Shown piece by piece: positions 51,754 to 57,702 of a stretch of 64,000 bases of DNA; the stretch's first letter is position 1; every line of letters begins with the position of its first letter. The translations under genes were made by a program, and so were the position numbers. Under the pieces are notes generated by a model, which was given only the letters and a program-made list of their open reading frames with translations, ran no database searches and was not told where the DNA came from. This stretch comes from Escherichia coli 042. Its GTDB lineage: Bacteria; Pseudomonadota; Gammaproteobacteria; Enterobacterales; Enterobacteriaceae. The stretch lies in NCBI RefSeq assembly GCF_000027125.1, contig NC_017626.1; one strand, written 5' to 3'.

Positions 51754-55002
<3,249 letters not shown>

Positions 55003-55030
55003 AGGCAGTACATTAAAACAAGGAGCGGCA

Positions 55031-55942
55031 ATGTATTACGGGTTTGATATTGGTGGAACAAAAATTGCGCTTGGCGTGTTTGATAGCGGTCGGCAGTTGC
55101 AGTGGGAAAAGCGGGTGCCGACACCGCGTGACAGCTATGACGCATTTTTAGATGCAGTGTGCGAGCTGGTGGCTGAAGCCGATAAGCGTTTTGGCTGTAA
55201 AGGTTCTGTCGGCATCGGTATTCCGGGAATGCCGGAAACAGAAGATGGTACGCTGTATGCCGCCAATGTCCCCGCTGCCAGCGGTAAACCGCTGCGTGCC
55301 GACCTGAGCGCACGTCTTGATCGCGATGTCCGCCTTGATAACGATGCCAACTGTTTTGCCCTTTCAGAAGCCTGGGATGATGAATTTACTCAATATCCAC
55401 TAGTGATGGGGTTGATTCTCGGCACCGGCGTTGGCGGCGGGCTGATTTTCAACGGTAAACCAATTACCGGTAAAAGCTATATTACCGGCGAGTTTGGCCA
55501 TATGCGTCTGCCGGTTGATGCGTTAACCATGATGGGGCTGGATTTCCCGTTACGCCGCTGCGGCTGTGGTCAGCATGGCTGCATTGAAAATTATCTGTCT
55601 GGTCGCGGTTTTGCGTGGCTGTATCAACACTATTATCATCAACCGTTGCAGGCTCCCGAAATTATTGTGCTTTATGATCAAGGTGATGAGCAGGCAAGGG
55701 CGCACGTTGAGCGTTATCTGGATTTATTAGCGGTTTGTCTGGGAAATATCCTGACCATTGTTGACCCTGACCTGGTCGTCATTGGTGGTGGCTTATCGAA
55801 TTTCCCGGCAATCACAACGCAACTGGCGGACAGGCTGCCTCGTCATCTCTTACCTGTAGCTCGTGTTCCGCGCATTGAACGCGCGCGCCACGGTGATGCG
55901 GGAGGAATGCGTGGTGCGGCCTTCCTACATCTAACCGATTAA
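55031..55942 (+). CDS. nagK: N-acetyl-D-glucosamine kinase NagK
   Basis: ATG at 55031 gives 303 aa [18 protein letters not shown] (ROK family). Confidence 0.9.
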
Positions 55943-55957
55943 ACAACAGAGGTTGCT

Positions 55958-56779
55958 ATGCTGTCGCGTCGGGGTCATCGGTTAAGTCGTTTTCGTAAAA
56001 ATAAACGCCGTCTGCGCGAGCGTTTGCGTCAGCGTATTTTTTTCAGAGATAAAGTGGTGCCGGAAGCAATGGAAAAACCAAGAGTACTCGTACTGACAGG
56101 GGCAGGTATTTCTGCGGAATCAGGTATTCGTACCTTTCGCGCCGCAGATGGCCTGTGGGAAGAACATCGGGTTGAAGATGTGGCAACGCCGGAAGGTTTC
56201 GATCGCGATCCTGAACTGGTGCAAGCGTTTTATAACGCCCGTCGCCGACAGCTGCAGCAGCCAGAAATTCAGCCTAACGCCGCGCATCTTGCGCTGGCTA
56301 AACTGCAAGACGCCCTCGGCGATCGCTTTTTGCTGGTAACGCAGAATATAGACAACCTGCATGAACGCGCAGGTAATACCAATGTCATTCATATGCATGG
56401 GGAACTGCTAAAAGTTCGTTGTTCGCAAAGTGGTCAGGTTCTCGACTGGACCGAAGACGTTACGCCAGAAGATAAATGCCATTGTTGCCAGTTCCCGGCA
56501 CCCTTGCGCCCGCACGTCGTTTGGTTTGGCGAAATGCCACTCGGCATGGATGAAATTTATATGGCGTTGTCAATGGCCGATATTTTCATTGCCATTGGTA
56601 CATCAGGGCATGTTTATCCGGCGGCTGGGTTTGTTCACGAAGCGAAACTGCATGGCGCACACACCGTGGAACTGAATCTTGAACCAAGCCAGGTCGGTAA
56701 TGAATTTGCCGAGAAATATTACGGCCCGGCAAGCCAGGTGGTGCCAGAGTTTGTTGAAAAGTTGCTGAAGGGCTTATAA
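55958..56779 (+). CDS. cobB: NAD-dependent protein deacylase CobB (sirtuin), long isoform
   Basis: 273-aa ORF; Arg-rich 37-aa N-terminal extension followed by internal Met ([20 protein letters not shown]) that would give the short isoform. Confidence 0.9.
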
Positions 56780-56905
56780 AGCAGGAAGCATTGCCTGATG
56801 CGCTACGCTTATCAGGCCTACAAGGGGACGCAATTAATTGAATTTGCGGGTTTTGTGGGCCAGATAAGGCGTTCGCGCCGCATCCGGCATAATAGACGCA
56901 CACTT
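56780..56905. repeat. REP / BIME cluster downstream of cobB
   Basis: GCCTGATGCGCTACGCTTATCAGGCC and GGCGTTCGCGCCGCATCCGGC palindromic units. Confidence 0.5.
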
Positions 56906-56916
56906 TACTGCCTCTT

Positions 56917-57702
56917 TTACCGTTTACTCGTCAATAACAACGCGGCAATAAACGTACAGACACCAATCAGCCCTGCCCAGAGCGGCGATATTCTGGTAAT
57001 CGCAAAGCTATTATCGATGTACAAACATAAAGCCTGATAACCCATATTGGCAATAGTCATCGCCACTGCAAACTTTAATGCATAATTAAGGCGCGTCGTG
57101 TAGTAAAAAAATGCAGTAAAGAAGATGAATGCAACTGCCCAGGCAAAAAGACCTAATATCGTGGTACTGCCGGGAGGATCATTCTCCTGCTGTTGTCCGG
57201 GATGCGGATAATATGTCAGTGGCGGCGTCGGTTGTTTTAATATCTGTGCTTGTAAAACAGCCAATGCATTATTGATTCCCTGATACCAGAGGTCCGCATG
57301 TAAATAAGCATGAGTGTGATTTTCTACCAGAAGGCCGAGATGTTTATCGTCCAGACCGCTTTCAACCTGGCCGTTGGTTATCATAATTAACCGTGGCTCG
57401 CGGGTGGTAAAAAGTAACAGGACGCTGCCTTTTACATCACTCAATGAAGATGACGCATGCGCCAGCATCGCTTTGCCATTTTGCCTGAAGCTTGCTTCAT
57501 TAACGTCAGGTACAACCACGATAAACGGCGCAATCCCGGTTTGGTGACGAAAAAGCTCCGCTTTCCGCGCAATCTCCTCAGCATCCGGTACAGTACCTGT
57601 AACATCCGTAAAAAGTGTCTTCATTATTGGGATTAAGGGCTTACTGGTTGCTGTCAGAGGCAGCAGTATCAGTAAACTGAGCAGTATTATGATTTTTTTC
57701 AT
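56917..57702 (-). CDS. ycfZ: Inner membrane protein YcfZ (uncharacterised)
   Basis: 261-aa ORF with signal peptide and C-terminal transmembrane segments; 4-nt overlap with ymfA upstream. Confidence 0.8.

Follow-up and report, generated by a model that had tools for sequence, protein, structure and literature searches.

An arginine-rich N-terminal extension and a constrained internal start at the 5′ end of Escherichia coli cobB

The cobB locus and its nested reading frames

The 64-kb stretch of Escherichia coli DNA analysed here (the window, to whose positions all coordinates refer) carries cobB directly 3′ of nagK, with an intergenic gap of 15 nt. Going 5′ to 3′, lolE (53758–55002) is followed by nagK (N-acetylglucosamine kinase; 55031–55942, plus strand), whose product of 303 aa is recognized by NCBIfam NF009835 (589 bits) as well as by Pfam ROK and whose homologous RefSeq locus is likewise named nagK, and then by the plus-strand reading frame of the long form of CobB (CobB-L; 55958–56779), which encodes 273 aa plus stop, has the family matches given below and equals in length a cobB coding sequence of RefSeq E. 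coli. At the near-identical RefSeq locus, the order is lolC-lolD-lolE-nagK-cobB, followed on the opposite strand by ycfZ, ymfA and potD.

The identity of the gene as cobB, encoding an NAD+-dependent sirtuin protein deacylase and the main lysine deacetylase of E. coli, is secure. Its product matches Pfam SIR2 (PF02146) over residues 48–221 (E = 1.4e-54; 185.2 bits against a cutoff of 24) and the NCBIfam equivalog NF001755 over residues 1–272 (597.5 bits against a cutoff of 318), the latter model therefore taking in the N-terminal extension described below. In a 50-sequence alignment, G48, G50 and S52 of the NAD-binding GAGxS motif are invariant, while the catalytic histidine and zinc-binding cysteines (H147, C155, C174 and C177), all found in the window protein, are kept in 90% or more of the sequences. 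This protein is also approximately 99% identical to the solved E. coli CobB structures 1S5P and 6RXJ (residues 39–273).

A 1.2-kb cobB region is present in 5,403 of 5,426 complete E. coli genomes, most of them 95–99% identical to the window and only 50 records reaching at least 99%, and a 161-nt segment at the 5′ end of the gene (55930–56090) is found at 95% identity or more in 5,425 of the 5,426. Five of 5,426 places matching this segment fall in records classed as plasmids; these replicons may have been misassigned, or large plasmids may carry this piece of the chromosome. The best species-level match of the window CobB, at 100% protein identity, comes from ‘Escherichia sp. E1V33’, and the window seems to derive from an Escherichia lineage that is less often sequenced. 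Immediately 3′ of cobB lie REP-type palindromic repeats (56771–56899), where the Rfam families naRNA4 and ES036 match weakly, below their gathering thresholds; the 1.2-kb query, which includes these repeats, has a median of 14 matching places per E. coli genome.

Codon 38 of the long frame is an ATG (56069–56071) that opens a nested plus-strand frame of 236 aa (56069–56779), the short form CobB-S, which holds the whole SIR2 domain. A first-pass annotation of this DNA had described 37 very basic codons ahead of an internal methionine (MEKPRVL), and this is confirmed, codon 38 being ATG followed by EKPRVL and the 23-letter basic string quoted there corresponding to residues 4–26 of the reading frame. 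With the extension on codons 1–37 and the ATG at 56069–56071, the span 55958–56071 is therefore made up of these 37 codons and the internal ATG and nothing else. The MG1655 RefSeq genome assigns two coding sequences to b1120, namely cobB (1179520–1180359; NP_415638.3) and ‘CobB-S’ (1179631–1180359; YP_010051180.1), the second beginning 111 nt into the first.

A basic tail conserved as protein

The Arg-rich N-terminal extension that belongs to CobB-L only (55958–56068, plus strand) matches that of K-12 in every amino acid and contains 12 arginines, 3 lysines and 1 histidine against 3 acidic residues, giving a net charge of +12 and a pI of 12.0, while the remaining 236 aa of CobB are acidic with a pI of 5.2. 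Such a charge is rare, being reached by only 13 of 21,415 windows of 37 residues drawn from stop-free segments of at least 150 aa across the 64 kb.

To this sequence we compared 80 other Enterobacteriaceae loci taken from a scan of one genome per species, with cobB products of 83–100% protein identity. The first ATG (ATG1), a Shine–Dalgarno-like motif and the extension occur in all 81 sequences, and many extension residues, R8, L9, R22, L23, R24 and R26 among them, never change although their codons vary freely at synonymous sites (synonymous diversity of 0.61–0.68 at R8, L9, R22 and L23), so the tail is under selection as a translated peptide. One member of this set comes from a record under the name Chryseobacterium sp. 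18061. Its cobB is of the Enterobacteriaceae type and encodes the same first 48 residues as that of ‘Citrobacter sp. 18056’, a record from the same study; the assembly has probably been mislabelled or contaminated.

An over-extended annotation, in which the 111 nt would be an untranslated leader and the basic ‘peptide’ an accident of the reading frame, might be suspected from the crystal structures and many older annotations, which start near residue 39, and from the architecture of most sirtuins elsewhere. When we searched 1.84 billion representative proteins and located the GAGxS motif in 128 of the best 150 hits, 89 of these 128 had ten or fewer residues before the core. We give this reading virtually no credence. 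Besides the protein-level selection just described and the span of the equivalog model, ATG1 is preceded at 5 nt by a good Shine–Dalgarno sequence (AGAGG; 55948–55952, plus strand) whose predicted anti-Shine–Dalgarno duplex of −6.5 kcal/mol is stronger than that of approximately 93% of random ATGs in the window, and whose position is occupied by GAGG, GGGG or GGAG in 80 of 80 related loci. Moreover, CobB-L has been seen by western blot, purified, and reported to bind cyclic di-GMP (c-di-GMP) and polyphosphate through its tail (PMC12926920, PMC6209979 and bioRxiv 10.1101/362293).

Solved CobB structures all begin at residue 39 or 40 and thus omit the extension. An AlphaFold2 model built on the 50-sequence alignment predicts the CobB core with confidence (pLDDT above 90) and, ahead of it, a single helix at residues 2–28 of low-to-moderate confidence (pLDDT 54–72) joined by a disordered linker at 28–36, suggesting a flexibly tethered basic appendage. 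We also considered an amphipathic alpha-helix as the organizing principle of the tail and rejected it: the helical hydrophobic moment of residues 8–29 (0.29) does not exceed the mean of shuffles (0.31), so we do not endorse that label, and the pattern is one of arginines alternating with other residues and not of a helical amphipath.

Several ligands and modifications have been reported for this tail. Deletion of residues 1–37, or the substitutions R8A, R17A and E21A, abolish c-di-GMP binding and inhibition (Xu et al., bioRxiv 10.1101/362293). CobB-L is the only form that binds polyphosphate and, to a lesser degree, DNA (NAR 2026; PMC12926920), oligomerization of Salmonella CobB-L is driven by the tail (Beura et al. 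2024; PMC10965786), and reviews attribute to Parks & Escalante-Semerena 2020 an inhibitory N-terminal acetylation of CobB-L by YiaC/NatA. In the window, codons 17–21 (56006–56020, plus strand) read R-R-L-R-E; this is the ‘RXLXE’ motif to which, jointly with R8, c-di-GMP binding has been ascribed. Its tail has R8, R17 and E21, as would be expected of a c-di-GMP-responsive CobB-L; across 69 species R8 and R17 are invariant, and E is the commonest residue at position 21 (64%). The suggestion in the first-pass annotation that the extension affects localization or substrate choice remains a proposal.

Two isoforms and a constrained segment around the internal start

That annotation had further proposed two CobB isoforms, one from a promoter inside nagK and one from an internal promoter and start, which is essentially right and coincides with published E. 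coli results. We take from this literature the presence of both proteins in vivo, the intervals assigned to the promoters and the binding of ligands by the tail; both forms are already annotated in the reference genome. Umehara et al. 2018 (PMC6209979) detected CobB-L and CobB-S as two His-tagged species and used deletion analysis to trace the promoter of CobB-L to the nagK-internal interval −417 to −30 and that of CobB-S to the interval +1 to +111 within cobB; they also cite an earlier reporter study in which promoter activity was absent directly upstream of E. coli cobB. In the same work, plasmids with only 30 nt 5′ of cobB, or with the cobB-L reading frame alone, made CobB-S and not CobB-L, and a construct beginning at ATG38 made no product, which locates the promoter within +1 to +111. 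Both species have thus been documented in vivo in DH10B and MG1655 (PMC6209979 and PMC12926920), in the latter strain with an anti-CobB antibody (PMC12926920). The original demonstration of two forms, in Salmonella, with two mapped transcription start sites, is credited by reviews to Tucker & Escalante-Semerena 2010. Over the first 120 nt of the gene a single synonymous base separates the window from K-12, so that the K-12 isoform results carry over.

Sequence by itself falls short of proving two isoforms, consensus promoter scans giving only weak sites. A position-weight scan of −450 to +125 returned as its top site a candidate sigma-70-like CobB-L promoter inside nagK (55611–55639, plus strand; TTGCGT, 17-nt spacer, TATCAT; −347 to −319 relative to ATG1), scoring 9.4 against a mean maximum of 8.2 in shuffled sequence and occupying the position of the BPROM prediction of Umehara et al. 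2018 (−347 to −319; PMC6209979). Under relaxed settings the scan also recovers a weak candidate for the internal CobB-S promoter (56012–56040, plus strand; CTGCGC, 17-nt spacer, TATTTT; +55 to +83; score 4.3), overlapping the second published BPROM site (+51 to +83). Both scores lie within the range of shuffled sequence and a stricter sigma-70 consensus scan of 54900–57000 yielded no site, so the exact hexamers remain predictions. A paper on E. coli acetylation (PMC4299603) offers no information on promoters of nagK or cobB.

The internal start is itself poorly marked, with a weak Shine–Dalgarno sequence (−3.6 kcal/mol; approximately the 81st percentile of random ATGs), yet it is well kept: among the 81 sequences, including that of the window, codon 38 is ATG in 76, GTG in 3, GTA in 1 and ATA in 1. 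The GTA (Val) belongs to Yokenella regensburgei, which has an in-frame ATG five codons upstream, and the ATA (Ile) to an uncultured Klebsiella MAG; judged by their sequences, both may be without a canonical CobB-S start, and with a non-start codon in two species CobB-S is therefore possibly not universal. These two exceptions, the weak Shine–Dalgarno sequence and the lack of a Met at that position in two distant tail-bearing proteins (P0001 and P0017) are what would speak for codon 38 as a mere internal methionine, with the 273-aa protein alone physiologically relevant and the shorter band a proteolytic product. We consider this highly improbable, given that constructs unable to make CobB-L still make CobB-S (PMC6209979), that CobB-S is annotated in the reference genome, that ATG or GTG is retained in 79 of 81 sequences and that no part of the core is as constrained at synonymous sites as the flanks of ATG38.

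This constraint emerges when synonymous diversity is expressed as an amino-acid-matched residual. Codons 28–40 have a residual of −0.22, a value exceeded by all 216 core windows of the same length; codons 1–16 show a similar dip (−0.20), and codons 17–27 in between are core-like (approximately 0.00). The two dips fit two separate translation-initiation regions. Within the second, the rare AGA codon at R30 (56045–56047) is retained in 62 of 69 species, and another at R42 (56081–56083) is conserved across genera with a synonymous diversity of 0.17, so that AGA codons flank the internal ATG on either side. We accordingly delimit a frozen synonymous block at codons 28–42 (56039–56083, plus strand), which would comprise a short leader, a weak Shine–Dalgarno-like GTGGTG/GGAAG and the first CobB-S codons, and where synonymous constraint would place the conserved control sequence of CobB-S. 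In nagK, synonymous diversity across 75 species does not dip at the predicted promoter or elsewhere in −417 to −30.

Conserved RNA structure around the internal start was considered and rejected: RNAalifold on 18 species gave −1.29 kcal/mol and no compensatory pairs. The single-sequence fold at ATG38 (z = +0.98) is if anything less structured than shuffles. A known RNA family was likewise dismissed, the sole hit in the region, to STnc500, being a chance match (15.1 bits against a gathering threshold of 44) that is absent from the homologous Salmonella loci.

Frozen codons 28–40 and unstructured local RNA would suit an internal ribosome-entry region equally well, and with it a scheme in which CobB-S arises solely by internal initiation at ATG38 on a long (nagK-)cobB mRNA, with no promoter of its own. 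The promoter-like matches inside cobB, weak (score 4.3) or in the stricter scan absent, lean the same way, as does the NAR 2026 paper in ascribing the isoforms to ‘alternative translation start codons’ (PMC12926920). Against this stand the constructs of Umehara et al. 2018 that produce CobB-S without CobB-L and confine its promoter to +1 to +111 (PMC6209979), as well as the two Salmonella transcription start sites that reviews describe as mapped, and internal initiation as the only source of CobB-S seems to us unlikely. Internal promoter and internal initiation may both contribute.

We therefore return to expression of the cobB 5′ end as two nested proteins from two transcripts, CobB-L with a regulatory tail and CobB-S, which we regard as very probable. 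A transcript arising within or before nagK and read from ATG1 (55958) would yield CobB-L of 273 aa, its first 37 residues forming a highly basic, probably helical and flexibly tethered tail; a second transcript, beginning inside the first 111 nt of cobB and read from ATG38 (56069), would yield CobB-S of 236 aa, the bare catalytic core. Both proteins are active deacylases, with the tail acting as a regulatory polyanion-binding appendage for c-di-GMP (through R8, R17 and E21, inhibiting the enzyme), for polyphosphate and, more weakly, for DNA, driving oligomerization and serving as the target of inhibitory N-terminal acetylation. CobB-L is the sole form responding to c-di-GMP and polyphosphate, and the ratio of long to short form is therefore a real regulatory variable.

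What is new here is comparative only: approximately 45 nt around the internal start are pinpointed by nucleotide-level constraint as a conserved control region, and the proposed nagK-internal promoter has no comparable conservation footprint. We interpret the frozen block as the part of the CobB-S mRNA that holds its leader and ribosome-binding region; to account for the pattern, a short leader with an initiation region is sufficient. It is doubtful that the block, including its AGA codons at R30 and R42, encodes more than a weak promoter, leader and ribosome-binding site; an additional role might be, for example, that of a protein or small-RNA binding site or a ribosome-pausing element, and such an element, if real, would set the long-to-short ratio of CobB by growth state.

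CobB isoforms and sirtuin tails in other systems

The closest known system, CobB-L/CobB-S of K-12, shares with the window the locus (lolCDE-nagK-cobB-ycfZ), an identical 37-aa extension, the internal ATG at codon 38 and both predicted promoter sites, which are identical in sequence. The cobB genes are approximately 97% identical in nucleotides, and over 273 aa the proteins differ at a single residue, E166 in the window and G in K-12. The C termini diverge, the window protein ending in KGL (273 aa) and that of K-12 in KGLKAGSIA (279 aa), owing to a 1-nt indel at the cobB stop (56770–56800; GGCTTATAAAGCAGG in the window, GGATTAAAAGCGGG in K-12) that creates or removes a TAA. A 273-aa CobB is found in 69 of the 81 Enterobacteriaceae sequences, and the K-12 C-terminal tail therefore looks derived.

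Salmonella enterica CobB-L and CobB-S, with 273 and 236 aa, equal the window forms in length and share the 37-aa Arg-rich tail, the nagK (ycfX) neighbour and the production of two isoforms from two transcription starts. Two Salmonella loci in our set (L027 and L030) align with the window over the tail without gaps and with few substitutions, and have Met at both codon 37 and codon 38.

Beyond this family, the best 150 hits of the wider search show the Arg-rich tail in just two distant proteins (P0001 and P0017) apart from the enterobacterial clusters, and the tail is thus a lineage-restricted addition. P0001/P0151 and P0017 have an Arg/Lys-rich extension of approximately 40 aa with a ...RKNKR...RQR...F motif on a core 59–60% identical to that of the window, and, unlike the window CobB, P0001 and P0017 have no Met at the internal-start position. 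The P0151 locus (L082; Logan contig from SRR1587384, 2501–3337) encodes a 60%-identical CobB with a 40-aa basic tail (MRSCHRHRTRINRYRKNKRKMRQRFQQQLF...) and no internal Met, and lies directly after lolCDE without nagK, followed by roxA-like and phoQ genes. These distant tail-bearing homologues probably make the long form only; the dual-start arrangement is narrower in distribution than the tail itself.

A looser parallel comes from eukaryotic sirtuins, whose isoforms arise by splicing and whose appendages have no sequence relationship to the CobB tail. By analogy only, they too are described in reviews as carrying flexible N- and C-terminal appendages on a conserved core, which bind ligands, carry modifications and differ between isoforms.
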